NCBI GenBank assembly: GCA_011773985.1
Contig: WVWN01000078.1
Location: 39,151 to 103,150, forward strand
Source of the DNA: Candidatus Zixiibacteriota bacterium
Lineage (GTDB): Bacteria > RBG-13-66-14 > B26-G2 > WVWN01
DNA length: 64,000 bases
Reading direction: 5' to 3'
The position numbers and the translations under genes are program-made. Under the pieces are notes generated by a model. That model ran no database searches. It was given only the letters and a program-made list of their open reading frames with translations, and was not told where the DNA came from. This document shows, piece by piece, positions 5,637 to 63,327 of the stretch (within the stretch, counting starts at the first letter, position 1; every line of letters begins with the position of its first letter).

Positions 5637-7184
5637 GTGGCGCGACTTTACGAATACCAGGGCAAAGCGCTATTGCGACGGGCGGGCGTAAAGGTCCCGC
5701 GCGGGCGGCCGGCGTACTCCCCGGCCGAGGTCGCGGCCGTCGCCTACGAAATCGGCGCCCCGGTCGTGCTCAAGGCCCAGGTCTTCGTTACGGCGCGGGC
5801 CGCGGCCGGCGGCATCCAATTCGCCGATAACGCCATGGCTGCGGAGCGGGTCGCGGGCCGCGAGATGTTCGGCCGCACGATAAAGGGCCAACGTTGCGAC
5901 GTCGTCCTGGTGGAGGAGAGACTCGACATCGCGCGCGAGATGTACGTCGCGGTCGTCGTCGACAACGACGCTCGCAAACCGCTCGTCATCTTCTCTTCCG
6001 TCGGCGGCTCGGGCGTCGAAGAGATCGCCGCGGCGCACCCGGAGGCGTTGGTCAAAAGAGACGTCGAGTCGGCGCGCGGCCTGTACGGCTACGAGGCGCG
6101 CGAGCTGGCGCGGCGCGCGGGCCTTAAAGGCCGGGAGCTGGTCGGCGTCGCGGACGCGTTGACGAAACTTTGGCGGGTCGCCCGGGACGCCGAGGCACGT
6201 GCCGTGGAGATAAACCCGTTGGTAATTACGGCCGGGGGCGAGGTGGTGGCCGCGGACTGCCGTATAACGGCGGACGACTACGCCGTCTTCCGGCACCCGG
6301 AGCTGGCCGTCGCGGTCGCGCGCGAGTTCGACCGGCCGCCGACGGAGCTCGACCTCATCGCGTATAACGCCGAGAAGGACGACTACCGCGGCACGTTCTA
6401 TTTCGTGCAGCTCGAGGAAGGTTTTGGCCGCGAAGGCCGCTATATCGGCTTCCACGGCGCGGGCGGCGGCGGCTCGATGATGTCGATGGACGCGGCGCTC
6501 GCGGAAGGGTTCAATATCGCGAACTTCTGCGACACCTCCGGCAATCCGCCGGCGAGCAAGGTCTACCGCGCGGCGCGCATAATTCTCGCTCAAAAGGGCC
6601 TGGTGGGATACTTCGGCTCGGGCTCGGGCGTCGCGAGTCAGGAGCAGTTCCACTCCGCGCGCGGCCTGGTGAAGGCTTTCCGCGAAGTTTGGCTTAATGT
6701 CCCCTGCGTCGAGCGCCTGGGCGGCAACCGGGAAGAACGGGCGATTCAAATATTGACCGAATATACGAAGGACCTTCCGGCGCCGCTCGAGTGCTACGGC
6801 AAGGACACCTCGGCCCGATATTGCGCCCGGCGGCTGCGCGAGCTCGTGGACGGCTACGACTACGACGCTGCCCGCGAGAAGCCGCCAGAGACGCCGCGCG
6901 ATTCCTCCTATTCTTTTAAGACCGTTACCGGCGGTACCGTCTCCTACGATTACGCGAGGTGCGACGGTTGCCAAACCAAGGTGTGCGTTAATGAGTGCGT
7001 GCCGGGGATACTCGAGCTCGACGGCGGCCGGCCGGTCCTCAACGTCAGCGAGGAGGAGGCGGCGCGGGGGCGCTGCACCGAATGCCTGGCGTGCGAGGTC
7101 GAGTGCCACGCCCGCGGCAACGGCGGCGGCAAAATAACGCTACCCATCCCGGGTTTGGGGGAGTATTTGACTAAGACGGCGTGA
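5637..7184 (+). CDS. succinyl-CoA-synthetase-beta-like ATP-grasp subunit with a C-terminal 2x[4Fe-4S] ferredoxin domain (candidate citryl-CoA synthetase large subunit)
   Basis: N-terminal (M)ARLYEYQGKALLRRAGV and AVEINPLVIT match SucC. Ligase-CoA region GFHGAGGGGSMMSMDAALAEGFNIANFCDTSGN. An extra ~120-aa C-terminus carries CDGCQTKVCVNECVP and CTECLACEVEC cysteine clusters. GTG start. Confidence 0.7.
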   Translation: MARLYEYQGKALLRRAGVKVPRGRPAYSPAEVAAVAYEIGAPVVLKAQVFVTARAAAGGIQFADNAMAAERVAGREMFGRTIKGQRCDVVLVEERLDIAREMYVAVVVDNDARKPLVIFSSVGGSGVEEIAAAHPEALVKRDVESARGLYGYEARELARRAGLKGRELVGVADALTKLWRVARDAEARAVEINPLVITAGGEVVAADCRITADDYAVFRHPELAVAVAREFDRPPTELDLIAYNAEKDDYRGTFYFVQLEEGFGREGRYIGFHGAGGGGSMMSMDAALAEGFNIANFCDTSGNPPASKVYRAARIILAQKGLVGYFGSGSGVASQEQFHSARGLVKAFREVWLNVPCVERLGGNREERAIQILTEYTKDLPAPLECYGKDTSARYCARRLRELVDGYDYDAAREKPPETPRDSSYSFKTVTGGTVSYDYARCDGCQTKVCVNECVPGILELDGGRPVLNVSEEEAARGRCTECLACEVECHARGNGGGKITLPIPGLGEYLTKTA

Positions 7185-7185
7185 T

Positions 7186-8094
7186 ATGTCGATATTGATA
7201 AATTCCGGGGATAAAGTCATCGTCGCCGGCATCACCGGCCGCGAGGGGCGCGCGCGGACGCGCCTAATGAAGGGCTACGGCACCAACGTCGTCGCCGGCG
7301 TTTCGCCCGGCCACGGCGGCGAGGAGGTCGAGGGCGTCCCGGTCTTCGACACCGTGGGCGCCGCGGTCGAGGCGGTGGGCGAGATTTACGCGTCGGTTGT
7401 CTTCGTGCCGGGGCCCGCGGTGAAGGAGGCGGCGCTCGAGGCGTTCGACGCCGGCGTAAAGCTCGCGGTGCTCGTCCCGGACCGCGTGCCCATATGGGAC
7501 GTGCTCGCGATAGATGCCGCGGCGCGGGAGGCCGGCGCCCGATACGTCGGCCCGAACACGCTGGGGGTGTTGTCGGTCGGCGAGGCGGTACTGGGGATGG
7601 TCGGCGGGAGCGCGGAATCGGCGCGGGAATGGTTCAAACCCGGGCCGGTAGGGATATCTTCTCGCTCGGGCGGGATTACGGCGTCGCTGGCCTACTACCT
7701 CGGCCGGGCCGGCGTCGGTGCGACCACGCTCGTCCACGTCGGCGGCGACGCCGTCGTCGGCACGCCCCACCAGGACGTCGTTCGGTTATTCCAGGAGGAC
7801 GCCGATACCAAGGCCGTCGTGTTGTTCGGTGAGATAGGGAGCAGCCAGGAGGAAAAGGTGGCGGAGCTTGTCGCCGAAGGCGTAGTTACTAAGCCGGTGG
7901 TGGCGTTCATAGGCGGCAAGGCCGCGAGGGAGGGGACGCGTTTCTCGCACGCCGGCGCGATCGTCGAGGCCGGCCGCGGGACGTACGAGGGCAAAGTGAA
8001 GGCTTTGCGCGAGGCGGGCGCTGTCGTTGTAGACGATTACGATAAGGTCGCGGAACGTACGTTGGGAGTTTTAAAAGACTTGGGCGAGGTATGA
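7186..8094 (+). CDS. succinyl-CoA-synthetase-alpha-like CoA-binding subunit (candidate citryl-CoA synthetase small subunit)
   Basis: MSILINSGDKVIVAGITGREG CoA-binding N-terminus, GISSRSGGITAS, and a phosphohistidine loop FSHAGAIV. 302 aa. Starts 2 nt after the beta-like gene's stop. Confidence 0.8.
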   Translation: MSILINSGDKVIVAGITGREGRARTRLMKGYGTNVVAGVSPGHGGEEVEGVPVFDTVGAAVEAVGEIYASVVFVPGPAVKEAALEAFDAGVKLAVLVPDRVPIWDVLAIDAAAREAGARYVGPNTLGVLSVGEAVLGMVGGSAESAREWFKPGPVGISSRSGGITASLAYYLGRAGVGATTLVHVGGDAVVGTPHQDVVRLFQEDADTKAVVLFGEIGSSQEEKVAELVAEGVVTKPVVAFIGGKAAREGTRFSHAGAIVEAGRGTYEGKVKALREAGAVVVDDYDKVAERTLGVLKDLGEV

Positions 8095-9545
8095 GCGACG
8101 AAGAGCGAGGAGGCGGTTTGACCAGTAAGCCGGCGTCGCCGGCGTTCGCCAAACTACGGCCCCGTCCCGACATGCGGGCATCTGTGTGCGAGGGCCTCTT
8201 CGGCCAGATGTTCTTAAACCTCGCCGGGGCCTGGTCGGCGTTCGTCACGGCGCTGGCGTTGAGCCTGGGGGCCGGCAGCCGGTCTTTCGGCCTGATCTTC
8301 GCCGCGGGGCCGGTGGTGGCGTTTTCGCAAGCGCTGGGGCCGGTGCTGCTGCCCCTTTTCGGCGGCTCGCGGCGGCGGCTTGTCGTCGCGGCCAGCGCGG
8401 GCGCGCGCGGCATAATTTTCCTCATCCCGGCGGTAGTGCTTTGGCTCGAGCCGGATGCGGCGCTCGCCCTCTTTATCGCTTGTTTCCTGGCCTCGCAGGT
8501 TTTAACCGGCGCCATGATGAGCGTGTGGACGAGTTGGATCGGCGCCATCGTCCCGGAGCGCATCCGCGGCCGCTTTCTCGGTAAGCGGACGCAACTGATG
8601 ATGGCGCTTGGGCTCGTCGTCGCTTTCGCGGCCAGCGTTTTTAAGGACCTCTCCGTGCCGGGGCGTGAAACGGGCCTGACGGGGTTTTTTCGCCGCCTGT
8701 TCGGCATCGCTGGCGGCCTGTGGGGCGCGGGGGGAGAACGGTACGCCTACTTTATAATATTCGCCTTTGCCGGCGCCGCGGGCCTCGCATCCACTCTCCT
8801 GTTGTTGCGACAACGCGACCGGCCGGCCCCTGCCGTACGCTTTTCGCTCCGCTCGTTGGCCGAGCCGCTCCGCGACCGCCGCTTTCGTCACCTGATATAT
8901 TTCTTCGGATGGTGGTGGTTCGCGGCGTCATTCGGCGCGCCGTTTTGGCAACCGTTCTACCTCGAAGTGTTACGCATGTCCCTAACCGCGGTTCAGATCT
9001 ACAACTCGCTTTTGATAATCGCGATGGCGGCGACCGCGGCTTTGTGGGGCCGTCTGTTAGACCGCTTCGGCAACAAGCCGGTCTTCCGAGGGCTGATATT
9101 CTTGGCGACGGCGAACTCGTTCGTTTACGTTTTCATGCGGCCGGACCTTTACTGGTGGGTTTGGCTGGAGGCCGTCACGTCGGGCGCGATGTGGGGTGGG
9201 GCTATGGTCGCGACGATAAACTTTATCATCCGCCTAAGCCCGGAAGCCAAACGGGATAGCTATGTCGCCCTGTACGCCGTCGTTGCCGGCGCGTGCGGCC
9301 TAGTCGCGACCGTCGGCTCCGGTCAGTTCGTGGCGATGCTGCCGCGCTACGTCTCGCTCGCCGGGTGGCAGCTTCTGAATATGAAGGTAGCGTTCCTCAT
9401 AACCACGGCTTTTCGCCTCGTTTCGCACGTTCCTATGTATTTAGTAAAAGAACCTCGGGCGGTGCCCTTCCGTCACATGATGCGCGCGGTGGCGGCGGAC
9501 GTGCGGCTGTGGTTTTTGCGATTCCGACCCGGCCCCGGCAAATGA
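8091..9545 (+). CDS. MFS-type membrane transporter
   Basis: 484 aa with about 12 predicted hydrophobic helices. ATGA overlap with the preceding sucD-like gene suggests co-transcription. Confidence 0.55.
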   Translation: MSDEERGGGLTSKPASPAFAKLRPRPDMRASVCEGLFGQMFLNLAGAWSAFVTALALSLGAGSRSFGLIFAAGPVVAFSQALGPVLLPLFGGSRRRLVVAASAGARGIIFLIPAVVLWLEPDAALALFIACFLASQVLTGAMMSVWTSWIGAIVPERIRGRFLGKRTQLMMALGLVVAFAASVFKDLSVPGRETGLTGFFRRLFGIAGGLWGAGGERYAYFIIFAFAGAAGLASTLLLLRQRDRPAPAVRFSLRSLAEPLRDRRFRHLIYFFGWWWFAASFGAPFWQPFYLEVLRMSLTAVQIYNSLLIIAMAATAALWGRLLDRFGNKPVFRGLIFLATANSFVYVFMRPDLYWWVWLEAVTSGAMWGGAMVATINFIIRLSPEAKRDSYVALYAVVAGACGLVATVGSGQFVAMLPRYVSLAGWQLLNMKVAFLITTAFRLVSHVPMYLVKEPRAVPFRHMMRAVAADVRLWFLRFRPGPGK

Positions 9546-10374: not shown

Positions 10375-11151
10375 ATGGCCGATAAGTGGTTCACAAGCAT
10401 AACGGACGTTGGGCCCAACAAAATACGCCTCAGCGGCTACCCCATCGGAGAGCTGATGGGCCGCAAGAGCTTCGCCGAGGTCGTGTGGCTCACGCTGCGC
10501 GGCGAGCTGCCGTCCGAGGCCGAGGGGAAGCTCCTCGATGCGGTCTTGGTGTCGTCGGTGGATCACGGCGTAACGCCGCCGTCCACGTTGGCCGCACGTA
10601 CGGCGGCCTCCACGGGCGCGCCGGTGAACGCGGCGCTCGCCTCGGGCGTCCTCGCCGTCAACCGCTTCCACGGCGGCGCGGTGGAGGGGTGTATGGCGGC
10701 TCTCGCCGAGGCAGTGGCCCATATGAAGGAGAAAGACGTCTCGCGTGAGGAGGCTGCGGCGGCGACAATCGGACGTTACGGCGAAGGTGGGCGTCGCGTA
10801 GAGGGTTTCGGCCACCGCCTCCACGACGACGACCCGCGGGCGGCGCGGCTATTCGCGTTGGCGGAGGAGCTGGGCCTAGCGGCCGAAGGTATCCCGATGG
10901 CCCGGGCTTTCGAAACCGCGCTTCGGAACCTTGCGGGTAAGGGGCTGCCATTGAACGTCGACGGCGCCATCGGCGCGTGCCTTTTCGACTTGGGTTTCGA
11001 GCCGCATACTGCCAACGCGTTTTTCATTCTGGCGCGAATGCCCGGGTGGCTTGCGCACGTCGTCGAGGAGCAGACGCGCGAGCGGCCCATGCGGCGCATT
11101 GAGCCGTCGGCGTGGGCGTACGACGGCCCGGGCGAGAGACATTTGACTTAG
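10375..11151 (+). CDS. citryl-CoA lyase-like protein (stand-alone C-terminal half of citrate synthase)
   Basis: 258 aa that align to the C-terminal catalytic half of citrate synthase: HGGAVEGCMAAL, GFGHRLHDDDPRAARLF, LPLNVDGAIGACLFDLGF...ARMPGWLAHVVEE. It lacks the N-terminal ~170 residues, as in Hydrogenobacter Ccl (~259 aa). Confidence 0.65.
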   Translation: MADKWFTSITDVGPNKIRLSGYPIGELMGRKSFAEVVWLTLRGELPSEAEGKLLDAVLVSSVDHGVTPPSTLAARTAASTGAPVNAALASGVLAVNRFHGGAVEGCMAALAEAVAHMKEKDVSREEAAAATIGRYGEGGRRVEGFGHRLHDDDPRAARLFALAEELGLAAEGIPMARAFETALRNLAGKGLPLNVDGAIGACLFDLGFEPHTANAFFILARMPGWLAHVVEEQTRERPMRRIEPSAWAYDGPGERHLT

Positions 11152-11164
11152 CTCGAGGTTCAAT

Positions 11165-11698
11165 ATGGAAGATAGAATTAAAGAGTTGTTGCCCGAGTTG
11201 GCAGATATCGAGGAGGGGGCGCTACGCGATAAAGTAGTCGCGGTGTACAAGGCAGCGCTCGAGCGCGGCGGCTGGCAACCGGAAGATATGGCACGCCTCC
11301 CGTCCACGCTTTTAATAGATCCGCCGCCCGCCACGTACGTCGAGCACACGCGCGCCGTCACGCGGTGTGCCGTCGCCGCGGCGGAGGCGATGGCGGCAGT
11401 ATACGGTTCCCGGGTGAATATAAACCGCGACCACCTGGTCGCCGCGGGCCTTCTTCACGACGTCGGCAAGCTCTTGGAGTATCGCGAGGAGGGCGGCAAA
11501 TTCGTCAAGTCGGAGCTGGGCCGGATGCTCCGGCACCCGTTGTCTGGTGCCGCGCTCTGCTACGGGTTCGGCCTTCCCCCGGAAGTAACCCACGTCGTCG
11601 CGACGCACGCCCGCGAGGGCGAGGGCGCCCGGGCGACGCCGGAGGCGATAATAATTCACCACGCCGACTTCATCAACTTTGAGCCGTTTAAATTGTGA
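11165..11698 (+). CDS. HD-domain phosphohydrolase
   Basis: HTRAVTRCAV...AGLLHDVGK conserved H...HD metal-binding residues. 177 aa. Confidence 0.6.
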   Translation: MEDRIKELLPELADIEEGALRDKVVAVYKAALERGGWQPEDMARLPSTLLIDPPPATYVEHTRAVTRCAVAAAEAMAAVYGSRVNINRDHLVAAGLLHDVGKLLEYREEGGKFVKSELGRMLRHPLSGAALCYGFGLPPEVTHVVATHAREGEGARATPEAIIIHHADFINFEPFKL

Positions 11699-12963
11699 AG
11701 AGTGGCAACGCGCAAACGTTCGCCGAAAAGATATTTTCGCGTAAGACGGGCCGGCCGGTGGCCGCCGGTGAAATAGTCGTGCTCGAGCCCGACCGTCTCC
11801 TCTCCCACGACAACGCCGCGGCCATCGCGAAGACCTTCGCGGAATTCGGCCTGAAACGGATTGTGGACCCGGCTAAGGCCGTCATCGTCTTGGACCACTG
11901 CGTCCCGGCGGCCTCGGAAAAATATGCCAAGAACCATCTAGAGATCCGTGAGTTTGTGGAAGAGAACGATATCGAGAACTTCTTCGACGTCGGCGAGGGG
12001 GTGTGCCACCAGGTCTTCGCAGAACAGGGGTTCGCGCTGCCGGGCGAACTTATTCTGGGCGCCGACAGCCACACGACGTCGTACGGCGCTTTCGGTGCGT
12101 TCGCCGCGGGCATAGGTCGGACCGAGATGGCGGCGCTCTACGCTACCGGTAAATTATGGCTTATGTGCCCGGCGTCGCTAAGGATTGAGGTAGCGGGCCA
12201 GTTCGGCGCGGACGTTTACCCTAAAGATTTGATTTTATACATAATAGGCGACCAGGGCGCCGACGGCGCGCTGTACAAGTCGGTGGAGTTCGCCGGGCCG
12301 ACGGTGGCGGCGGCGTCGCTGTCGGGGCGGATGACGCTCTGCAATATGGCCGCGGAGATAGGCGCCAAGAACGCGTACGCCGCCCCGGACGAAAAGACGC
12401 GGGCCTTCCTCGACGGCCGCGCGCGTCGTGAGTACGACGAGGTCTTCCCGGACGACGGCGCCGCGTACGAGCGAACGCTCTCGTACGACGTCGCCGGCCT
12501 CGAGCCCCAAGTAGCGGCCCCCCACCGCGTAGACAACGTCGTCCACGTAACGGAGTTGGTGGGTACGCGCGTGGACCAGGTCGTCGTCGGGACCTGCACC
12601 AACGGCCGCGTCGACGATTTAGTGGTGGGGGCGAATATCCTGCGGAACCGGCAGGTGGCACCGGGCGTGCGCGTCCTCGTCTTTCCGGCGAGCCGGGCGG
12701 TTTACCTCGAGGCCCTGGGGATCGGCGCGCTGGCGACGTTGGCCGAGGCGGGTTGCGTAATTATGAACCCGGGTTGCGGGCCGTGCCTCGGCGCCCACGA
12801 GGGAATCCTGGCCGCGGGCGAGGTTTGCCTCTCGACCGCGAACCGCAACTTCCGCGGCCGCATGGGCTCGACGGAAGCCGAGATTTATTTATGCTCGCCG
12901 GCGACCGCGGCGGCTTCGGCTTTATGCGGAAGGATTACCGACCCCCGGACGGTGAGGGCGTGA
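11695..12963 (+). CDS. aconitase-family large subunit (3-isopropylmalate dehydratase / homoaconitase LeuC-like, 420-aa type)
   Basis: ILGADSHTTSYGAFGAFAAGIG, VVGTCTNGRVDD and NPGCGPCLGAHEG Fe-S cysteine ligands. 422 aa. Confidence 0.8.
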   Translation: MKSGNAQTFAEKIFSRKTGRPVAAGEIVVLEPDRLLSHDNAAAIAKTFAEFGLKRIVDPAKAVIVLDHCVPAASEKYAKNHLEIREFVEENDIENFFDVGEGVCHQVFAEQGFALPGELILGADSHTTSYGAFGAFAAGIGRTEMAALYATGKLWLMCPASLRIEVAGQFGADVYPKDLILYIIGDQGADGALYKSVEFAGPTVAAASLSGRMTLCNMAAEIGAKNAYAAPDEKTRAFLDGRARREYDEVFPDDGAAYERTLSYDVAGLEPQVAAPHRVDNVVHVTELVGTRVDQVVVGTCTNGRVDDLVVGANILRNRQVAPGVRVLVFPASRAVYLEALGIGALATLAEAGCVIMNPGCGPCLGAHEGILAAGEVCLSTANRNFRGRMGSTEAEIYLCSPATAAASALCGRITDPRTVRA

Positions 12964-22464: not shown

Positions 22465-23907
22465 TCACTTCCAGTGGCCGCTGATGAACTCCTCGACCTC
22501 TGGAAGGCCCCCTTGGAGGATTAGGTAGCCGTTGGTGGGCTCGCGGTCGGTAATCTCGCCGGCGACGGGGGTGAGCATTATCCTCCTGACCTCGTCAAGG
22601 TCGTCGGTCCGACCGAGGGCCCAACAAAGCTTAACGTACGCGACCTCCGGCAGCATGTTCTGGGCGGGGATGACGCCGAGGCGTTGCATGTCGCGGCCGG
22701 TCTCGTAGACATCCATGTGGACGTAACCCCATAGCGTTTGGACCGTCATATACACAGCGACGCGGGCCTCCTGGGCGCGCTTGAGTGCCGGGTAGCACGG
22801 CTTGTTGACGTGGCCGAGGCCCGTCCCGGCAATGACGATGCCGCGATAGCCCAGGTCGACGAGCGCGTCGAGGATGTCCGGATACATATTCGGGTAATAA
22901 TATATCAACGCCACGCGCTCCTCGAAGGCGGTGTTGAGTACGCATTTGCGGTCGCCGGGGCGGCGCCGGGCGTAATCGTCGCGCAGGGGCGCGATACGCT
23001 CGCGGTTTACGGTCGCGAGCGGGACGTCGCCGATTGTGCGGAACGTTGAGCGGTAGGAGGAGTGCATCTTGCGGACGCGGGTGCCGCGGTGGAGGAGGCC
23101 GTACAGGTCCGAGGTGGGCCCGAACATACACACCATAACCTCGGCTATATCCGATTCCGCCGCGGCTTTAGCGGCGTGGATGAGGTTGAGCGCGGCGTCG
23201 GAGGAGGGGCGGTCGCTGGAGCGCTGGCTCCCGACGAGGACGACGGGGACGGGCGATTTCTGGACCATAAACGAGAGGACCGCGGCGGTGTGGTGCATGG
23301 TATCGGTGCCGTGGCCCACGACGATGCCGTCGACGCCCTTTTCGATCTCGCGGGCGATGGCCTTCGCGAGCACTACGTACTCTTGGGCCCCCATATTTTC
23401 AGAGAAGACGCCAAAGAGCTTCTCGGTTTCTAGATTACAGATGTCGGCGAGTTCCGGGACCGCGCCGTACAACTCGCCGGGCGTGAAGGCCGGAATGACG
23501 GCGCCGGTGCGGTAGTCGAGGCGGGAGGCGATGGTGCCGCCGGTTCCCAGGAGTTTGACGAACGGCCGGCCTTCCTTGAAGGGGAATTCCTTTTCCGGTA
23601 TCTTGTAGTGGGCGACGGCGTACCCGGTCTCTTTTATATCGGTTATAGCGTCGACGGCCACGCCGACATTATAACCGGAGGCGATCTTGATGACTATGTG
23701 CTGGTCGTCGCCGGACTCGGCGCGGGGGAGAACCCGTCCCTCGAAGCGGCCCCGGCTCGAGTCGATGAGGACATCGCTCCAGACTTTGACGCCGAATTTT
23801 TTTAGGCATTCGAGGGCGGCACCGCGGTAACCTTTGTGGAGATCTTGTGCCGGGGCCTTTGGAGCCTTTTTCCGTACCGTATTTTTATTTCGGGGCGGGC
23901 GAGCCAT
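22465..23907 (-). CDS. gatD: glutamyl-tRNA(Gln) amidotransferase subunit D, archaeal-type (asparaginase family)
   Basis: GatD-specific N-terminal domain (EGRVLPRAESGDDQHIVIKIASGYNVGVAVDAITDI), followed by the asparaginase fold LLGTGGTIAS...GIVVGHGTDTM. 480 aa. Confidence 0.65.
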   Translation of the reverse strand: MARPPRNKNTVRKKAPKAPAQDLHKGYRGAALECLKKFGVKVWSDVLIDSSRGRFEGRVLPRAESGDDQHIVIKIASGYNVGVAVDAITDIKETGYAVAHYKIPEKEFPFKEGRPFVKLLGTGGTIASRLDYRTGAVIPAFTPGELYGAVPELADICNLETEKLFGVFSENMGAQEYVVLAKAIAREIEKGVDGIVVGHGTDTMHHTAAVLSFMVQKSPVPVVLVGSQRSSDRPSSDAALNLIHAAKAAAESDIAEVMVCMFGPTSDLYGLLHRGTRVRKMHSSYRSTFRTIGDVPLATVNRERIAPLRDDYARRRPGDRKCVLNTAFEERVALIYYYPNMYPDILDALVDLGYRGIVIAGTGLGHVNKPCYPALKRAQEARVAVYMTVQTLWGYVHMDVYETGRDMQRLGVIPAQNMLPEVAYVKLCWALGRTDDLDEVRRIMLTPVAGEITDREPTNGYLILQGGLPEVEEFISGHWK

Positions 23908-26304: not shown

Positions 26305-28254
26305 TTATCGTTCTTTCGCCTTGGGCAGGAATTTCTCGGTGACGATTTCGGCGAGTTCGGCGCCGGGGACGAGCCCCCGCAACTCGGCCATGAGCTCGCC
26401 CATGGCGTAGCGTTTCATCGCCGCGGGGCCGTTGGGGAACCGGCGCACCTTGATCTTACGTTCCACTTTCTTCGCTATTTCGGGAAGCCGTGCTGTTACC
26501 TTGCCGCGGTGCGTCAGGTCGTTGAGGATGCTGCGCAGCGGCGCGCCGTGGGACAGATACGCCTCGAGCGCCGCGGTTAAGGCCTCCCGCGAAATCTTTC
26601 CCCGGCCGTAAAGGCTGAACGTCCTTTCGACGTCGCTTGGGGCGAGGTCGTCTACCGCCCAGCCGCGGCGGCGCCATCCTTTCATCTTGTGCGTTAACGT
26701 CGTCGCTGCGAACTTCGGCTCGACGCCGTGTTCTTCGACGACTTTTTCGAACGTTTCGGCCCAGCGGGACGCGGCGAGGGGCGCGACGCAATCCTCCGGG
26801 ACACCCCACTCGCGGTAGCGGCCTTCGCGGGTCCATATAGGCTCGGGGAGTTCGCTCGCCAACGCCGCGACCCGCTCTTCGGGAATTTTAATCGGCGGCC
26901 GGTCCGTATCGGGGTACATGCGGTCCGGCCCGGGCAGGATTCGTTCGAAGCCCGTCGTGCCGTCGGCTAGGGCCTGGCGCGTCTCCGACGGTACTCCTAT
27001 CGTCGCCTCGTGGGCGCGGAGGACGATCTCGTCGGCGCCCAGGCGCGCGTCCTCGGCCGGGCCCCAAACCAGGACGACGACGTCGCGGTCCCGCGCCTTG
27101 AGTTTACGGCGGAGGCGGCGCCACGTCTCGTCGCCGAGTTGGCGCGAGGAGGTTTCGTCGTCGAAGACGTTTGGCAGGCGATCGAGGCACGCGACTACGC
27201 GTACGCGATCCGAAATTTCGTCGACGAAGCTTTTGGTCTCCTGGGTACGCGCGCCGAGGATGCCGCGAAAACCGCGGAGCGCCACCGCGTACGCGTGGCC
27301 GCCTTCTTTCGCGGCCGCGGCGGGCAGATTTTGCCTGTCGCCCGTTGCCGCCGCGGATACGTCTACCACGACGGCGCGAAACGAGCTCTCCGTTATCCCC
27401 CGGCGTTTGAGTTCCGCGTGAATGTCGAGGAGCGCTCGTTGGCGCATGGCCTCGTTGTGGACGAGGCGGGGTATGGCTTTTAAGCGGGGGACGCCCTTGA
27501 TCTCCGCGCGGGTACCGCCCGCGACGGATACGTTTACGTCCTCGCGCGCGGCGCCGATGCCGGTGCGGACGAGGCCGGTGGAACGGGTGAGCCGCCGTAA
27601 GAGCTGCCCGACCTCGGCGATTTCGGCCGGCGTCTCCATATCCGGGTGCGTTACCGTCTCGACGAGCGGCATCCCCAGGCGGTCGGTAAGATATATCCGG
27701 TAGTGCCCTTCGTCGCCCACCTCGCGGCAGGAATCCTCCTCGACGGCGAGCTGTTTTATGCCGATGCGCCTTCCCCGGAAGGGGACATAACCCTCGACGC
27801 CGACGATCGCGGTCCGTTGGAACCCGGTGGGGATGGACCCGTCCAAGTATTGTTTGCGGATGATGTGCATCTCGGAGACGATGTTGCAATTCAACAACAG
27901 CGCGATTTTCAAGCCAATGTCGATCGATTCCTCGTCCATATCGAAGGGCGGCGTATCGTCCATCTCGTACGTGCAGCACGTCTCCTGCTTGGTCCGGTAG
28001 ATGATGTTTTTACGGGTCTTAAACTCCATGAGGGCGGTGCCGTCGTACTCGCCCATTTCGGACAAAGTGGGCCGCATGTGGCGAAGTATTTCGGCGTCGT
28101 AATCGTAGGAATAAATGCCCGCCGGGCAACGGCAGAAGAGCTTCGAAGTGGTCAGGAGTTGTTGGTGGATTTCGAGGCCGCCGCGGAAACCCATCGCGCG
28201 GTAATCGTCGTCCGTAAGGGAACCGAAGGGTCGTACGTTGGTTATGGTGGGCAT
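26305..28254 (-). CDS. gatE: glutamyl-tRNA(Gln) amidotransferase subunit E, archaeal-type (GatB/GatE family)
   Basis: GLEIHQQLLTTSKLFCRCP signature. 649 aa, the GatE size with an AspRS-like insertion (GatB is about 480 aa). C-terminal GatB/YqeY-like helical tail. Confidence 0.65.
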   Translation of the reverse strand: MPTITNVRPFGSLTDDDYRAMGFRGGLEIHQQLLTTSKLFCRCPAGIYSYDYDAEILRHMRPTLSEMGEYDGTALMEFKTRKNIIYRTKQETCCTYEMDDTPPFDMDEESIDIGLKIALLLNCNIVSEMHIIRKQYLDGSIPTGFQRTAIVGVEGYVPFRGRRIGIKQLAVEEDSCREVGDEGHYRIYLTDRLGMPLVETVTHPDMETPAEIAEVGQLLRRLTRSTGLVRTGIGAAREDVNVSVAGGTRAEIKGVPRLKAIPRLVHNEAMRQRALLDIHAELKRRGITESSFRAVVVDVSAAATGDRQNLPAAAAKEGGHAYAVALRGFRGILGARTQETKSFVDEISDRVRVVACLDRLPNVFDDETSSRQLGDETWRRLRRKLKARDRDVVVLVWGPAEDARLGADEIVLRAHEATIGVPSETRQALADGTTGFERILPGPDRMYPDTDRPPIKIPEERVAALASELPEPIWTREGRYREWGVPEDCVAPLAASRWAETFEKVVEEHGVEPKFAATTLTHKMKGWRRRGWAVDDLAPSDVERTFSLYGRGKISREALTAALEAYLSHGAPLRSILNDLTHRGKVTARLPEIAKKVERKIKVRRFPNGPAAMKRYAMGELMAELRGLVPGAELAEIVTEKFLPKAKER

Positions 28255-57244: not shown

Positions 57245-57775
57245 CTAAAACGCCACCAAGTCCTGGAACCATTCTTTTCCCCGGACCGAGGCGAAATCGG
57301 CGTCAGTCGCGGCTTTCGGTTTGGCTTTGGGGTCGAGCTCGAGCGCGCGGCGGAGATGCGCCTCGCACTCTTTTTCGTTACCTTCCAACGCCCAGTAGCA
57401 GGCGAAATTGTAGTGGGTCAAGTGCTCCTCGGGCGCGAGTTCGACACCGCGTCGGTGATTTTCGAGCGCCTCCCCGGAGCGGCCCGCGCGGTGGAGGGCC
57501 GAGCCTTTCGCGGTGTAGGCCAACGCGAAGTCAGGTTTTTTTCTTATGACCTCTTCGCAGACGGCGACGGCTTCCTCGGCGCGGCCGAGCATCGTTAGGG
57601 CGTTCGCCTTCGCGGTATGAATGCGCGGGTATTCTGGGTCCGCGGCGATGGCCTCCTCAAAAGCAGCCAAGGCTTCTTCGAAACGGTTGGCGTTGAATAG
57701 TTGGCGGCCGCGCTGGAAGTGGACCTGGGCGCGAAGGTGGGCCGTGTCTTTGGGTTTTTCCGCTTCCCCTTTCAT
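57245..57775 (-). CDS. small TPR-like protein (tandem paralog 1)
   Basis: Likely start MKGEAEKPKD at ATG 57775 (ATGA overlap with the upstream paralog's stop). TPR-like repeats. Shared motif YNFACYWALEGNEKECEAHLRRALELDP...WFQDLVAF. Confidence 0.5.
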   Translation of the reverse strand: MKGEAEKPKDTAHLRAQVHFQRGRQLFNANRFEEALAAFEEAIAADPEYPRIHTAKANALTMLGRAEEAVAVCEEVIRKKPDFALAYTAKGSALHRAGRSGEALENHRRGVELAPEEHLTHYNFACYWALEGNEKECEAHLRRALELDPKAKPKAATDADFASVRGKEWFQDLVAF

Positions 57776-58305
57776 TTGAGAGCCACCAATTTTTGGAACC
57801 ACGGTTTTTCGCGAAAGGGAACGAAGTCCTCGTCGACGGTGGCCGTGGCCTTGGATTGAGGGTCGAGCTCGAGCGCGCGGCTTAGGTATCGGCGGCACTT
57901 CTCTTCGTCGCCCTCGACGGCCCAGAAGCAGGCGAAGTTATAGTAGATGCGCGGTTCGTCCGGCGAGAGAGCGATCGCCCGGCCGAAGTCGGCTTCGGCC
58001 TCCGCCCGCCGTCCCAGGTCTTGAAATATCGAGGCGCGGGCCGCGTAGGCGAGCCCGGCATGCGCGTCGCCCGCGATGGCGCGCGCCGCGGAGGCTAAGG
58101 CTTCGTTGGGGCGTCCTAGCCGTTTCAACGCGTACGCGCGAGCGATTTCCGCACGTAGGAAACTCTCGTCTTGGCGGAGGGATTCGTCGAATGCGGCGAG
58201 CGCTTCGGCGAACTTGCGGTTTCGGAAGAGCGCCCGGCCGCGTTCGAAATGCACTTCGGCGCGGAAGCGTTTTAGCTCCTCCCGTTCGGCGTTAGAACGT
58301 CCCAA
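57772..58305 (-). CDS. small TPR-like protein (tandem paralog 2)
   Basis: 177 aa. Same architecture and motifs as 57245..57775 (YYNFACFWAVEGDEEKCRRYLSRALELDP...WFQKLVALK). Confidence 0.5.
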   Translation of the reverse strand: MGRSNAEREELKRFRAEVHFERGRALFRNRKFAEALAAFDESLRQDESFLRAEIARAYALKRLGRPNEALASAARAIAGDAHAGLAYAARASIFQDLGRRAEAEADFGRAIALSPDEPRIYYNFACFWAVEGDEEKCRRYLSRALELDPQSKATATVDEDFVPFREKPWFQKLVALK

Positions 58306-58948
58306 GCGCCTCCCTTTCGCCCGATGGTAAGGTCACTACGCTGGGATGTTTACGTACTTAACCGCGGCGGCTCCGGCCGTGTTAACGTCATTCGCACCCG
58401 GCGCCCAGTTCGCGCTATGACGGCACGTCCCACCACGGGCCCGGTCCGAAGGGGACTTCGGCGTCGTGTCCGGACGTTTGGCCGGGTCGGCGGCAAGGGC
58501 ACCGGCGAGATTCCGGGCGACGATGACGCCGTCCTCGGACTGCGCGGCTAAGGCGCCGCACGCCGCGTCGCCCGTCTTGCCCCGGAGCGGGCCCGCTTCG
58601 GCCGAGATTTTTGTGAATTGGTGGGCTATTTCGCCGACCGCCTGTTGCAGCTCGTCGCGGGCCGAATTTCCCGCCGAGTTTTTTAAAGGTAGCCGTTAAT
58701 ATTTTCCGTAACTGCGAACGGGTCGGCGCGGTAGCCCACGGCCGGGCTGACCGCGGGCGGCCCTTTAGGGCCGCCGTCAGCGACTATCGCGGTATAGGCA
58801 CAAAGCCCTAATAGCGCAAGAGGAGCGCATTGGACGGCCGTCGCGCCGCCGCGTAACCCTTGATCATATCTTATAATAACCTATAATTTGCCGCGTTCGC
58901 AACTAAAAAGGCGAACTCTATCCGGGTTCTTGTTTTCGCGGATAATTT

Positions 58949-59962
58949 TTGTTAGCATTAATTTTGAGTTTCGGATGGCCTACTTTGAAGGTTTTGGTGA
59001 CAGGGGCAAACGGTTTTATCGGCAGCCATCTCGTCGAGGCGCTTCTCGAGCGGGGCGATGAGGTACGCTGTCTATTACGACCGACGAGTAACCGCCGTTG
59101 GCTCGAGGGCCTGGATTACGAAGAGGTCGCAGGGGCCCTCGACGATGGGGGGTCTTTGGCCCGCGCCGTGGCGGGCGTGGACGTGGTCTATCATAGCGCG
59201 GGCGTGACCAAGGCGCGCAAGGCCGATATGTTATACAGGGTCAACGCGGAAGGGACCGCGAACCTTGCGGACGCCTGCCTCGGGCGGGAGACGCCGCCGC
59301 TCTTCGTATACGTCTCAAGCCAGGCCGCCGCGGGCCCCTGTCGCGCGGGGGACGCGCTTCGCGAAACGGAGGCGTGCGACCCCGTTAGCCATTACGGCCG
59401 AAGCAAACTCGAGGGCGAGCGCGCTTTGGGAAAACGCGCCGCCCAGATACCTTTCGTGATCCTTCGGCCTTCGGCCATCTACGGCCCGCGCGATACGGAG
59501 ATGTATTTGTTTTTCAAATTTATAAAAAGAGGTATCGAGCCGACGTTAGGGTGGGACGAGCGGTACGTGAGCCTTTGCTACATAAGCGACCTGGTGGACG
59601 CGTTGCTCCTGGCGGGCCGAGTGGAGAAGGCCCGGGGCGAAGTATACTTCATAGCTCACGACGAGGTATGGGATTGGCGCGGGATATCGAGGCAGGCCGC
59701 GGCGGCTTTGGGGGTTAGAACCTTCCCGGTCCGCATACCCAAGGTGGTACTCTTCGGCGCGGCGACGGTGGCGGAACTGGCCGCGACGTTGTCGGGGAAG
59801 GTTGCCACCCTTAACCGCGAGCGTGCCCGCATTATGTGCGAGGAGCTCTGGGTGTGCGACGTAAGCAAGGCGAGAGACGAGTTAAATTTTGCGCCCCGCG
59901 TGGGATTCGCCGAGGGCGCGAAGTTGACGACGGCGTGGTACCGCGAACAAGGGTGGTTGTGA
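58949..59962 (+). CDS. NAD-dependent epimerase/dehydratase (SDR) family protein; candidate ceramide/3-ketosphinganine reductase (CerR-like)
   Basis: KVLVTGANGFIGSHLVEAL Rossmann motif. Extended-SDR layout, about 325 aa. Start uncertain: TTG at 58949, TTG at 58985 (giving LKVLVTG) or GTG at 58997. Ends 4 nt before the spt-like gene. Confidence 0.6.
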   Translation: MLALILSFGWPTLKVLVTGANGFIGSHLVEALLERGDEVRCLLRPTSNRRWLEGLDYEEVAGALDDGGSLARAVAGVDVVYHSAGVTKARKADMLYRVNAEGTANLADACLGRETPPLFVYVSSQAAAGPCRAGDALRETEACDPVSHYGRSKLEGERALGKRAAQIPFVILRPSAIYGPRDTEMYLFFKFIKRGIEPTLGWDERYVSLCYISDLVDALLLAGRVEKARGEVYFIAHDEVWDWRGISRQAAAALGVRTFPVRIPKVVLFGAATVAELAATLSGKVATLNRERARIMCEELWVCDVSKARDELNFAPRVGFAEGAKLTTAWYREQGWL

Positions 59963-59966
59963 GAAT

Positions 59967-61190
59967 ATGACCGAGTTACGATCTGGTCGGCCCGATATTT
60001 TCGAGAAGTGCGAGAAATTTACGGCGGCGAAAGCCGCGATGGCCGCCGGGGTCTATCCTTACTTTCACGTCATCGAGTCGGGGCAGGACCCCGAGGTTAT
60101 GGTCGAGGGGCGCCGGATGATCATGGTGGGGTCGAACAATTATCTGGGTTTGACCTCCCACCCCAAGCTTAAAGAGGCGGCGATCAAAGCGACGCAGGAG
60201 TTCGGCGTCGGTTGCGTTGGCTCGAGGTTCTTGAACGGTACGCTCACCGTACATATCGAGCTGGAGCGCCGGCTAGCGAAGTTCTGTCGTAAGGAAGCGG
60301 CGCTCGTCTTTTCCACCGGTATGCAAACGAACTTGGGCGCGATATCCGCCTTGGCCGGTAAACGCGACGTCATCGTGACCGACAAGTACGACCACGCCAG
60401 CATCATCGACGGTTGCCGGTTGAGCTTCGGCCATATGAAGCGTTTCCGCCATAACGACATGCACGACCTGGAGCGCGTTCTCCAGTCCCCCGCCGACGGC
60501 GGCGGCGCCATTATCGCCGTGGACGGCGTTTTCAGCATGGAGGGCGACGTTTGCAATTTGCCCGCCATCGTCGAGCTGGCGAAGAAGTACGGGGCCCGCG
60601 TCCTGGTAGACGACGCCCACGGCATCGGCGTACTCGGCTCGCGCGGCGCGGGCGTAGCCGACCATTTCGGCCTTGAGGATGCCGTAGACATAATCATCGG
60701 CACGTTCAGCAAGTCCTTCGCCTGCGTCGGCGGCTTCGTCGCTTCCTCCGAGACCGTGTGTCACTATCTCAAACATTTCGCGCGTTCGATGATATTCTCC
60801 GCCAGCCTGCCGCCGGCCAACGTGGCCTCCGTCACCGCGGCGCTGGACATCATCGAGAACGAGCCCGAGCGGCGCGAGCGCCTGAAAGAGGTAGCCGAGA
60901 AGATGCGCCGCGGCCTGCAGGGCCTCGGCTACGATACCGGCGAGAGCACGACGCCCATTATCCCGGTCATCGTAGGCGACGACCTCACGGCGCGGACGAT
61001 GTGGCGGAAGCTCTTCGACGCCGGGATATTCACGACGCCCATAATGACGCCCGCGGTCCCGGAGAACCGCGCGCTCATCCGCCTTAGTTGTATGGCGACC
61101 CATACCGACGAGCACGTCGAGAGGGTTGTCGAGGCGTTCGAGAAGGCCGGCCGCGAGATGGGCATCATCGGGGGGTGGTCCCTGGCGTGA
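59967..61190 (+). CDS. serine palmitoyltransferase-like alpha-oxoamine synthase (PLP-dependent)
   Basis: GSNNYLGL, HASIIDG, and PLP-lysine motif GTFSKSFACVGGF (the Spt-type GTFSKS, distinct from BioF GTLSKA and Kbl GTLGKA). 407 aa. Confidence 0.75.
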   Translation: MTELRSGRPDIFEKCEKFTAAKAAMAAGVYPYFHVIESGQDPEVMVEGRRMIMVGSNNYLGLTSHPKLKEAAIKATQEFGVGCVGSRFLNGTLTVHIELERRLAKFCRKEAALVFSTGMQTNLGAISALAGKRDVIVTDKYDHASIIDGCRLSFGHMKRFRHNDMHDLERVLQSPADGGGAIIAVDGVFSMEGDVCNLPAIVELAKKYGARVLVDDAHGIGVLGSRGAGVADHFGLEDAVDIIIGTFSKSFACVGGFVASSETVCHYLKHFARSMIFSASLPPANVASVTAALDIIENEPERRERLKEVAEKMRRGLQGLGYDTGESTTPIIPVIVGDDLTARTMWRKLFDAGIFTTPIMTPAVPENRALIRLSCMATHTDEHVERVVEAFEKAGREMGIIGGWSLA

Positions 61191-62299
61191 TCACGGTCGA
61201 CGAGGTTACGTCGAAAAGGGCCCTGGCGGATTTTGTAGATTTCCCGTACCGTTTATATCGCGACGACGCCAATTGGGTCCCGCCGCTCAAGCGCGACGTG
61301 CGGTTTACCTTCGGCCGCCGGAATCCGTTCTGGCACCACGCCGAGCGGGCGCTTTTTATCGCCCGGCGGGAAGGCGGCGTCGTGGGTCGCGTGGCCGCGA
61401 TAAAGGACTACGAGTACGTAGAATTCGCGGGCGAGCCGTGCGGTTACTTCGGCTTCTTCGAGGCCGAGAACGACGGGGACGTCGCGGCCGCGCTCTGGGA
61501 TGCCGCGGGGGCCTGGCTCCGTTCCAAAGAATTAACGGCCATGCGTGGCCCGATGAACCCGTCGACCAACGAGGAGTGCGCGTTCCTGGTGGAGGGGTTC
61601 GACCGGCCCCCCTTCATTATGATGACCCACAACCCGCCGTACTACGCGGCGCTCGCGGAGGGGTACGGCTTTCGGAAGGCGCGGGACTTGTTTGCGTTTT
61701 TGGCGTCGGTATCGCCCGCGCGGCTCGAGCGCCTCGAGCGCCTCGCGGCCCGCACGCAGGCGCGCAACCCCGGCCTCGCCGTCCGCCACGTCAACGTCGC
61801 CGATTTCGCGCGCGAGGTCCAGCTCGTCCGCGAGATTTACAATCGGGCCTGGGAGGACAACTGGGGCTTCGTGCCGGCGACGCGTGAGGAGTTCGAGAGT
61901 ACGGCGAAGCGGCTCAAGTCGCTCGTAGTCCCGGAGCTGGTTCCCATAGTTACGGTCGACGGCGACCCTGCGGGTTTCATCTTTACGGTCCCCAATTACA
62001 ACGAGGTCCTGATAAAGATGGGCGGGAGCTTGGGTCCGGTGAGCCTCTTCAAATTCTTAAAGGGTAAGCGCAAGATAAGGAGCTGCCGTCTTATGTTGTT
62101 CGGCATCTGCCCGGAGTACCGCAAGCGCGGCGTCGACGCGGTGCTCATAACGTCAAACCTCCGGGCCACGCTCGCGTTGGGCTACGAGAAAGCCGAATGC
62201 TCGTGGGTGCTCGAGGACAACGAGCTCACGAAGCGCGCCGCGGCGATGATGGGTGCGCGGCCGTACAAGAGGTATAGGATTTACGAGAAGAAGATTTAG
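61186..62299 (+). CDS. GNAT-fold N-acyltransferase, candidate bacterial ceramide synthase (bCerS-like)
   Basis: Likely GTG start at 61186 inside the GTGA that overlaps the spt-like stop. About 370 aa. C-terminal GNAT acyl-CoA motif LFGICPEYRKRGVDAVL. The six-frame ORF starts 33 codons upstream with R-rich out-of-context residues. Confidence 0.5.
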
Positions 62300-62352
62300 C
62301 CTCGGCAGGGCGGTTTCGCCGGATAGGAGACGGCGGCCGGGGGCCGCCGATT

Positions 62353-63327
62353 TTATTCTAAACCGTACTCGCCGAATTTTCGTTTCCAAAACTCCGCCCA
62401 CTCCTCTACGATTTCCCATTCAATAGGCAACCGGTAATCGTCTATATTCGCGTCTACTTCGTCGCGCGTCACGATATCTTCCGGATAAATTATACCGGAC
62501 CGCCAGTACATCGGGACTATTATATTTCTGCGGCCGTCAGTGAATTCGTAGCCTTGCTTTTTCGAGCAAAATATGAACCCTACGTACTCGAAGTCGTCAG
62601 ACCCCTCGTTATTGGACGCTACGTGTACCCCCGTAGGCCCCGAGAACTCGCAAGGCCCCGGCCCCTTGCGGCCGAACTTCCCTAAAAAACTCCCGGCCCG
62701 CGTAAAATATTGGACGTCGCACCTCATATAGTCTATGACGTAGACGTTTCCGCTCGGCGCGGTTGCGACGCCTTCCGGGAACCTGAATTGGCCGTCGCCG
62801 CCGCCGTACGTTCCCCATTTATTGAGAAAGCTGCCGTCCTTCGAGAATCGCTGGATACGATAATTAAAAGAATCGGCTACGTAAACGCCGTAATCGGGCG
62901 ATATTGCGATACTGAACGGATATTTGAACTCGCCGTCGCCGGCCCCACTCTTTCCCCATTTCCCCAAAAACGAGCCGTCGGCCGTAAAGTACTGTACGCG
63001 GTTATTCACCTTTTCGGTGACGTATATCGTCGAGTCGGGCCCGGCGGCAATTCCTACCGGCTCGTTGAACTGGCCGTCGCCGCTCCCCAGCGTGCCCCAC
63101 TGGCCTAAGTATTCGCCGGTCAACGCAAAGTACTGGACGCGGTTATTCCCCCAGTCCACTACGTAAACCCTGCCGTTCGGCGCCACGGTAACATCGTAAG
63201 GACCTTCGAATTGGCCGTTACCCGGCCCCCGCGTTCCCCACTTATACCAATAAACGTACGTATCACCGTACGCGGCGGAGAAAACAAAAACCCCCACGCC
63301 GGCCCACCGGGCCAACCTGGGTAGCAT
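62353..63327 (-). CDS. secreted NHL-repeat beta-propeller protein
   Basis: Signal peptide MLPRLARWAGVGVFVFSAAYG (start at internal ATG 63327). Five or more NHL repeats with a recurring NNRVQYF / NYRIQRF motif. Unknown about 90-aa C-terminal domain. Confidence 0.65.
   Translation of the reverse strand: MLPRLARWAGVGVFVFSAAYGDTYVYWYKWGTRGPGNGQFEGPYDVTVAPNGRVYVVDWGNNRVQYFALTGEYLGQWGTLGSGDGQFNEPVGIAAGPDSTIYVTEKVNNRVQYFTADGSFLGKWGKSGAGDGEFKYPFSIAISPDYGVYVADSFNYRIQRFSKDGSFLNKWGTYGGGDGQFRFPEGVATAPSGNVYVIDYMRCDVQYFTRAGSFLGKFGRKGPGPCEFSGPTGVHVASNNEGSDDFEYVGFIFCSKKQGYEFTDGRRNIIVPMYWRSGIIYPEDIVTRDEVDANIDDYRLPIEWEIVEEWAEFWKRKFGEYGLE

Follow-up and report, generated by a model that had tools for sequence, protein, structure and literature searches.

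A compact three-gene operon predicted to encode bacterial ceramide synthesis in a Zixibacteria-like genome

Layout of the cerR-spt-bcerS locus

The window analysed in this study is a stretch of 64,000 nucleotides (64 kb) from a Zixibacteria-like genome (contig WVWN01000078.1, assembly GCA_011773985.1), and it contains a compact group of genes that probably encodes the known bacterial route to dihydroceramide. The listing of open reading frames (ORFs) has three same-strand ORFs at this site. Their predicted products are an extended short-chain dehydrogenase/reductase (SDR) of the CerR type (gene 1), a pyridoxal phosphate (PLP)-dependent alpha-oxoamine synthase of the serine palmitoyltransferase type (Spt; gene 2) and a tandem-GNAT N-acyltransferase of the bacterial ceramide synthase type (bCerS; gene 3). 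The nearest named relative is a Candidatus Zixiibacteriota metagenome-assembled genome (MAG), to which the three operon proteins are 78–89% identical. The genes and the candidate signals around them are as follows.

58860..58887, + strand: sigma-70-like promoter candidate (TTGATC-16-TATAAT); 10/12 matches in a consensus scan, a pattern match only
58942..58966, + strand: AT-rich motif ATAATTTTTGTTAGCATTAATTTTG just 5' of the gene 1 start; by-eye comparison with loci L010 and L011
58985..59962, + strand: cerR-like gene, extended SDR (epimerase/dehydratase family), 325 aa, predicted NAD(P)H-dependent 3-keto reductase; Pfam and homology
59967..61190, + strand: spt-like gene, PLP-dependent alpha-oxoamine synthase, 407 aa, predicted serine palmitoyltransferase; NCBIfam, PDB and tree
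61187..62299, + strand: bcerS-like gene, tandem-GNAT N-acyltransferase of the YghO/CC_1154 family, 370 aa, predicted ceramide synthase; homology and AlphaFold2
62331..62359, + strand: intrinsic-terminator-like hairpin, 8 G-C pairs, followed by ATTTTATTCT; consensus scan, a pattern match only

The first-pass annotation, made from the sequence alone, had described three same-strand genes separated by a 4-nt gap and a 4-nt overlap, and all of this is seen in the ORF coordinates. The gap between genes 1 and 2 occupies 59963-59966, and the overlap between genes 2 and 3 is GTGA, in which the bcerS start codon overlaps the spt stop codon. The gene coordinates given there were right for gene 2 (59967..61190) and needed revision at the other two starts. 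For gene 1, the longest ORF is 58949..59962, the extent first assigned to it; the closest relatives show in-frame stops upstream and begin at the equivalent of TTG 58985 (MKVLVTGANGFIG), and TTG 58985 rather than 58949 is therefore most likely the start. Prodigal picked GTG 58997 on the source contig. The start given for gene 3 (61186) lies one base out of frame; GTG 61187 opens a 370-aa product that matches a called protein of GCA_012975005.1 exactly and agrees in length with nearly all the homologues listed.

The operon has a divergent TPR gene on its upstream side and a convergent NHL-repeat gene on its downstream side, and the GC-rich, T-tract-bearing hairpin sits between the operon stop at 62299 and the end of the NHL-repeat gene at 62353. 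On the opposite strand, some 1.3 kb past the operon and beyond the convergent gene, is a cysK-like PALP gene. The AT-rich motif is located 20–45 nt 5' of the cerR start codon, has similar counterparts in the two closest relatives, L010 and L011 (TTTCTGTTAAAATATA and TTTTTGTTAAAATTAA), and may be a promoter or leader element. Rfam gave no match in 57500-63000, and the 680-bp spacer upstream of the operon has no small ORF resembling an acyl carrier protein (ACP). The lineage had been described as high in GC, which agrees with a GC content of about 0.62–0.64 for both the operon and the window. The upstream genes (ThyX, DUF362, nitroreductase and TPR) are syntenic with those of relatives at 50–78% identity. 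A recent horizontal acquisition was considered and rejected on the equal GC content and on the synteny of the operon and its upstream flank in two related MAGs.

The three predicted enzymes

The middle gene had been credited with a PLP motif of the serine palmitoyltransferase type, and GTFSKSFACVGGF is indeed found in gene 2. Its best NCBIfam model is NF047600 (SerpalmtaseCFB), with 532.7 bits, below the cut-off of 640; the next model scores 438. Among PDB entries, gene 2 scores 406 bits with the serine palmitoyltransferase (SPT) of Sphingobacterium multivorum (SmSPT), 313 with BioF/KBL, 287–303 with Sphingomonas SPTs and 264/244 with cysteate acyltransferases. Identity to the crystallised SmSPT is 47% over 385 ungapped residues, and that to the Parabacteroides Spt is 52%; rhodobacterial Spts reach 38–42%, and context-validated Kbl and BioF 41–44%. 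The active-site residue set was taken from the S. multivorum SPT–serine complex (PMC10196870). Gene 2 keeps N57, S86, H143, S190, D215, H218, T246, S248, K249 and S278, the equivalents of SmSPT Asn52, Ser81, His138, Ser185, Asp210, His213, Thr241, Ser243, Lys244 (the PLP-binding lysine) and Ser273, so that every side chain described in the complex is present. SmSPT Phe114 and Met271, which touch ligands via main-chain atoms (PMC10196870), are Met and Ile in gene 2. Conservation of these active-site residues is necessary but not sufficient for an Spt, as they are widespread among alpha-oxoamine synthases. One residue is reported to tell the two enzyme types apart, cysteate acyltransferases having Lys (Lys281 of SulA) and Spts having Ala (PMC9304779); at this position gene 2 has Ala279, aligned to SmSPT Ala274. 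A sulfonolipid pathway of the SulA/CapB type was considered and rejected on Ala279 and the low scores to cysteate acyltransferases.

We built a neighbour-joining tree (numpy, 200 bootstraps) of 74 sequences, comprising bCerS-linked homologues, SmSPT, the Spts of Parabacteroides, Sphingomonas and Klebsiella, and Kbl and BioF references validated by tdh and bioA/bioD neighbours, respectively. Kbl and BioF are split from all bCerS-linked sequences and the known Spts with 97.5% bootstrap. The first-pass annotation had named clustering with BioF/Kbl or with cysteate acyltransferases as outcomes that would speak against a ceramide role; gene 2 stands apart from the former in the tree and from the latter by Ala279 and the PDB scores (264/244 versus 406). 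By sequence, it is closest to the Spt subgroup of Bacteroidetes and delta-proteobacteria. A further alpha-oxoamine synthase, encoded at 4998-6212 of L091 (a Priestia megaterium plasmid, Bacillota), shares 52.6% identity with gene 2, which puts it level with the Bacteroidota Spts; it has no bCerS or CerR nearby, and methyltransferase and acyltransferase genes adjoin it.

Gene 3 found no match in Pfam or NCBIfam, and a PDB sequence search returned only a marginal match (7Q3A, E 0.09). We compared it with E. coli yghO and an N-acetyltransferase (aca) of Sphingomonas parapaucimobilis, both found by tblastn against annotated plasmid records. Gene 3 aligns over its full length with E. coli YghO (37.5–37.8% identity, E 1.3e-83), collinearly over about 370 aa with Sphingomonas aca, which lies five genes after spt (34%, E 1.5e-72), and end to end with the GNATs of the Rubrobacter and Streptomyces clusters (40–42%). 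Published aca/cerS orthologues are CC_1154, yghO (ECD_02850), Swit_3908 and DRN02_007910, the last of which is also located five genes after spt (PMC9386255). A grouping with unrelated N-acyl amino acid synthases, likewise named beforehand as contrary evidence, was not what we found; gene 3 falls in the bCerS/YghO family. This family consists of proteins of about 370 aa, with more than 4,388 matches in a word-indexed search and 1,528 cluster representatives at 50% identity in an exhaustive search (E <= 1e-30).

The AlphaFold2 model of gene 3 (pLDDT 88.7, pTM 0.88) has two GNAT-like repeats, and the top PDB folds in Foldseek are tandem GNATs: 2WPW (clavulanate pathway), 5KF1 (Clostridium acetobutylicum glucosamine N-acetyltransferase), 7Q3A (MAB_4324) and the mycothiol synthase MshD (E 6e-16 to 5e-10, TM about 0.6). 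The two-repeat architecture of these solved structures matches the prediction for gene 3, whereas their identity to it is only 11–15%, their acyl donors are short and their acceptors unrelated. Among the PDB matches to gene 3 in the sequence and fold searches there was no structure of the bCerS family. A CoA-pyrophosphate-type motif, YRKRG, is present in the C-terminal repeat. The first-pass annotation had seen a long N-terminal domain of unknown function (about 200 aa) in this protein. Because homologues from different phyla align collinearly over residues 1 to 370, the N-terminal half belongs to the family, and together with the AlphaFold2 and Foldseek results this indicates that the N-terminal ~200 aa is the first repeat of the predicted tandem-GNAT fold, common to the whole family; a special extra domain was rejected.

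Two observations on the family deserve mention. Near gene 3 residues 308-316 of the alignment, non-proteobacterial bCerS homologues carry the CoA-pyrophosphate-type motif (EY-RKRG-I/V); in a YghO-like protein of Klebsiella and in Sphingomonas aca, the R-x-R-G is missing and three residues are inserted. This contrast may reflect different acyl-donor binding in two bCerS subfamilies. In L011, the Zixibacteria MAG that is the closest named relative, the minus strand of the locus encodes at 8292-9401 a second paralogue of the bCerS family, a divergent one with 28% identity over the full length; it is convergent just downstream of the operon, where the window has the NHL-repeat gene.

Gene 1 matches the Pfam family Epimerase (2.7e-34) and also 3Beta_HSD, which places it among the extended SDRs. 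Its NCBIfam matches are all sub-threshold, with HpnA first, followed by the lipid ketoreductases OleD and SdmB, and the same fingerprint is common to E. coli epi, Sphingomonas CerR and the reductases of Aureispira, Rubrobacter and Streptomyces. Identity is 30% to E. coli epi (E 1.5e-36), 30% to the protein in the CerR position of Sphingomonas (E 7.7e-28) and 36–39% to the Aureispira, Rubrobacter and Streptomyces cluster reductases. The Rossmann motif G7-x-x-G10-x-x-G13 and the Ser/Tyr/Lys triad are intact, and TGxxGFxG, S111/S112 and Y137xxxK141 each reach 90% conservation or more in 51 spt-linked homologues. A reductase of the BT_0972/Tsc10 type was rejected as a match. BT_0972, a 3-ketosphinganine reductase (Tsc10/FVT1-like), reduces the same 3-keto group and uses NADPH (PMC9278070); it belongs to the classical SDRs, has a mass of about 31 kDa and carries GxxxGxG, whereas gene 1 is an extended SDR with GxxGxxG and Epimerase/3Beta_HSD domains, as is the CerR type. 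The assignment of gene 1 as a CerR orthologue is supported mainly by conserved gene linkage.

Synteny and comparison with known ceramide systems

For the synteny scan we used one genome per GTDB species and analysed the best 80 of at least 598 loci with a bCerS relative. An spt gene lies within 7 kb of the bCerS homologue in 62 of the 80 loci, and in 60 of these 62 the two are neighbouring members of the trio. All three genes occur in 43 of the 80 loci, the cerR-type gene thus being linked to spt/bcerS in 43 and absent from 19 of the 62. The order cerR-spt-bcerS of the window is found in 22/80 loci, from Zixibacteria, Nitrospirota, Elusimicrobiota, Acidobacteriota and Desulfuromonadaceae. Nine loci have the order spt-bcerS-cerR (Myxococcus, Bdellovibrionales, Gemmatimonadota and Eisenbacteria) and six have cerR-bcerS-spt (Acidobacteriota such as Bryobacterales). 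Myxococcus and Bdellovibrionales are known sphingolipid producers. Clustering of the three ceramide genes has already been published (PMC11334938), and with its order shared by 22 of the 80 species-representative loci, the compact ACP-less operon is not unusual.

The exhaustive-search representatives of the bCerS family include three proteins of composite structure, each of which may be a real fusion or a frameshift artefact. In the metagenomic protein P0144 (780 aa), a predicted Spt-like half, 53% identical to gene 2, is fused to bCerS. P0249 (940 aa) joins bCerS to an AMP-binding enzyme resembling acyl-AMP ligases, and P0121 (784 aa) contains two bCerS copies.

The Caulobacter crescentus pathway consists of Spt (CC_1162/CCNA_01220), bCerS (CC_1154/CCNA_01212) and CerR (CC_1164/CCNA_01222), the same three enzyme families as in the window, and the E. 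coli BL21 and Sphingomonas counterparts give full-length alignments to the alpha-oxoamine synthase, the YghO-type tandem GNAT and the extended SDR of the window. In alpha-, beta- and gamma-Proteobacteria, Spt works with a dedicated ACP (AcpR) loaded by AasR, both encoded in the cluster, and cerS lies in a separate transcription unit (PMC9386255, PMC11324152); the window has neither AcpR nor AasR, and its bcerS is translationally coupled to spt. The Sphingomonas neighbourhood contains genes for an NAD(P)H-binding protein, an ACP, an aminotransferase and an ATP-binding protein, lptF, lptG, and genes for a desaturase and an N-acetyltransferase, and its order at L001, epi-acpR-spt-x-lptF-lptG-x-aca, agrees with the published sphingolipid cluster (PMC9386255). 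In the E. coli and Klebsiella loci, the genes FAAL-epimerase-ACP-alpha-oxoamine synthase are divergent from yghO. The E. coli record L095 holds a complete five-gene cluster of the sphingolipid type (FAAL, epimerase, ACP, alpha-oxoamine synthase and yghO) with lptF/lptG paralogues, adjoining glcC. In E. coli K-12, the cluster at the yghO locus is reportedly not intact. A five-gene cluster of this type is also present on the conjugative IncFIB plasmid L009 of Klebsiella michiganensis, so the cluster can be plasmid-borne.

Closest to gene 2 are the Bacteroidetes and delta-proteobacterial Spts (S. multivorum, PDB 3A2B/8GUH; Bacteroides BT_0870 type), which share its active site and have no ACP partner. 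Bacteroidota, however, reportedly have the three genes scattered (PMC11334938), and the Parabacteroides locus has spt alone, whereas the window has them in one operon. More similar in layout are the Actinomycetota replicons (Rubrobacter radiotolerans plasmid 1 and a plasmid of Streptomyces sp. NBC_01001), where the same ACP-less trio is tightly packed in operons at 45–52% (Spt), 40–42% (bCerS) and 38–39% (reductase) identity to the window. Their order is spt-bcerS-reductase, in contrast to reductase-spt-bcerS in the window, an order that is commonest in MAGs of Nitrospirota, Acidobacteriota, Elusimicrobiota and Zixibacteria.

The absence of an ACP from view, recorded in the first-pass annotation, holds for the full 64 kb: a tblastn search for AcpR and AasR homologues drew a blank both in the window and in all 80 loci, and the Pfam listings for the window contain neither an acyl carrier protein nor an AMP-ligase domain. 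With both AcpR and AasR lacking in 64 kb, the window does not belong to the rhodobacterial five-gene variant (AasR-CerR-AcpR-Spt plus CerS). Because there is no dedicated ACP or acyl-ACP synthetase and gene 2 resembles the Bacteroidetes/delta-proteobacterial Spt subgroup (PMC9386255), whose enzymes use acyl-CoA (PMC10196870), the acyl donor of Spt is most likely acyl-CoA.

Predicted pathway, alternatives and implications

We estimate a probability of about 0.85 that the three genes form one transcription unit, cerR-spt-bcerS, and that it encodes the known bacterial route to dihydroceramide. The bacterial ceramide pathway (CerR/Spt/bCerS) was also the first-pass proposal, and the full-length homology of all three products to genetically defined proteobacterial ceramide genes bears it out. 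This assignment builds on homology, conserved catalytic residues, the predicted fold, operon structure and cross-phylum synteny, from which we infer which substrates and cofactor are used, whether acylation or reduction comes first, and that the organism produces sphingolipids. In the proposed pathway, Spt (gene 2) would form 3-ketosphinganine from L-serine and a long-chain acyl thioester; bCerS (gene 3), a tandem GNAT, would N-acylate the long-chain base; and CerR (gene 1), an extended SDR, would reduce the 3-keto group with NAD(P)H.

Several points weigh against this assignment. The enzyme activities and the lipid product proposed for this protein set and lineage rest on homology. The score of gene 2 (532.7) is below the NCBIfam equivalog cut-off of 640, and the model is named for the CFB group (Bacteroidetes), outside which this lineage falls. 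Branching inside the Spt clade is poorly resolved in the neighbour-joining tree, and the pairwise distance of gene 2 to rhodobacterial Spts equals that to Kbl/BioF. The tie to Caulobacter is indirect for gene 1 as well as gene 3: it depends on E. coli, Klebsiella and Sphingomonas orthologues recognised from published tables and by synteny. For gene 1, 30% identity between extended SDRs is not specific by itself. Caulobacter CerR is reported to be periplasmic (PMC11087976), in passages that name no export signal; gene 1, read from its conserved start, opens with the Rossmann motif (residues 6–13) and shows no N-terminal extension or signal peptide.

The same enzymes could also act in a eukaryote-like order, in which CerR reduces 3-ketosphinganine to sphinganine and bCerS then acylates it. 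This reduce-then-acylate order was reportedly proposed by Olea-Ozuna et al., the Caulobacter proposal reportedly being acylate-then-reduce. The literature on the order is divided (PMC11087976, PMC11324152, PMC10191378), and the position of gene 1 at the head of the operon and the absence of a visible export signal, which would allow all three steps to be cytoplasmic, also speak for reduction first. On the other side, Spt and bCerS are neighbours in 60/62 loci, translationally coupled in the window and fused in P0144, while the reductase is variable in position and absent from 19/62, a pattern that fits a hand-over of 3-ketosphinganine to bCerS. This near-invariant adjacency, the coupling and the fusion protein lean towards acylation first, circumstantial as they are, and we regard reduction first as rather unlikely. 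A related and tentative proposal, to which we give somewhat less than even odds, is that, beyond the Proteobacteria, bacterial ceramide synthesis has a conserved functional core made up of the Spt-bCerS pair and not of the trio. In that case Spt would hand 3-ketosphinganine straight to bCerS, and reduction would be the final step. If true, the acylate-then-reduce order, disputed for Caulobacter, would apply to many phyla, and Zixibacteria-like bacteria would be ceramide producers that work independently of an ACP.

The substrate of gene 2 might be an amino acid other than serine, with alanine or glycine leading to 1-deoxy(methyl)ceramides or cysteate leading to capnine and sulfonolipids. Bacterial Spts do take Ala and Gly at low efficiency (PMC10196870), and 1-deoxyceramides are abundant in anoxic waters, where they have been ascribed to bacteria with 'Spt-like' proteins (PMC11334938). 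The lineage also belongs to the FCB group, and the cysK-like PALP gene is ~1.3 kb away, on the other strand. Nevertheless, we consider this substrate change improbable: gene 2 has Ala279 where SulA has Lys281 (PMC9304779), its scores with cysteate acyltransferases are far below that with SPT (264/244 against 406 bits), the serine- and PLP-contacting side chains of SmSPT are all kept, and a convergent gene parts the cysK-like gene from the operon. That gene 2 is instead a housekeeping Kbl or BioF, with the epimerase-family and GNAT neighbours there by coincidence, is hardly credible, even though TIGR00858 (bioF) and PRK06939 (Kbl) score 406 and 400 bits on it and its identity to validated Kbl and BioF sequences is 41–44%. 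The Pfam listings place no tdh or bio genes nearby in the window, the tree separates Kbl and BioF from the bCerS-linked sequences and known Spts, and the trio is kept across many phyla.

The first-pass annotation had called the lineage T9SS-bearing; in this respect the Pfam listings for the window brought up only an FG-GAP protein with a FlgD_ig-like C-terminal domain. A GatD-like gene (GatD_N and asparaginase domains) lies at 22465-23907 (minus strand) and a GatE-like gene (GatB_N, 649 aa) at 26305-28254 (minus strand); the pair corresponds to an archaeal-type Glu-tRNA(Gln) amidotransferase in an otherwise bacterial-looking, Zixibacteria-like genome. An ATP-citrate-lyase-like set at 5637-8094, 10375-11151 and 11695-12963 (all plus strand) comprises ATP-grasp_2 with a citrate-binding domain, CoA-binding/CoA-ligase, a citrate-synthase C-terminal domain and aconitase, and hints at a reductive tricarboxylic acid cycle.

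The known picture of bacterial ceramide synthesis is unchanged by this locus, as earlier publications already describe the enzymes, how they cluster and how widely they are spread phylogenetically, and many genomes show the same gene order. In our literature search, no paper was found that ties the Zixibacteria-like phylum to sphingolipids. The compact ACP-free operon is a handy three-gene cassette for heterologous ceramide production and for probing the order of acylation and reduction. If expressed, it would add an uncultured Zixibacteria-like lineage to the predicted ceramide makers, and it bears on which organisms produce the bacterial (deoxy)ceramides of anoxic sediments and waters.

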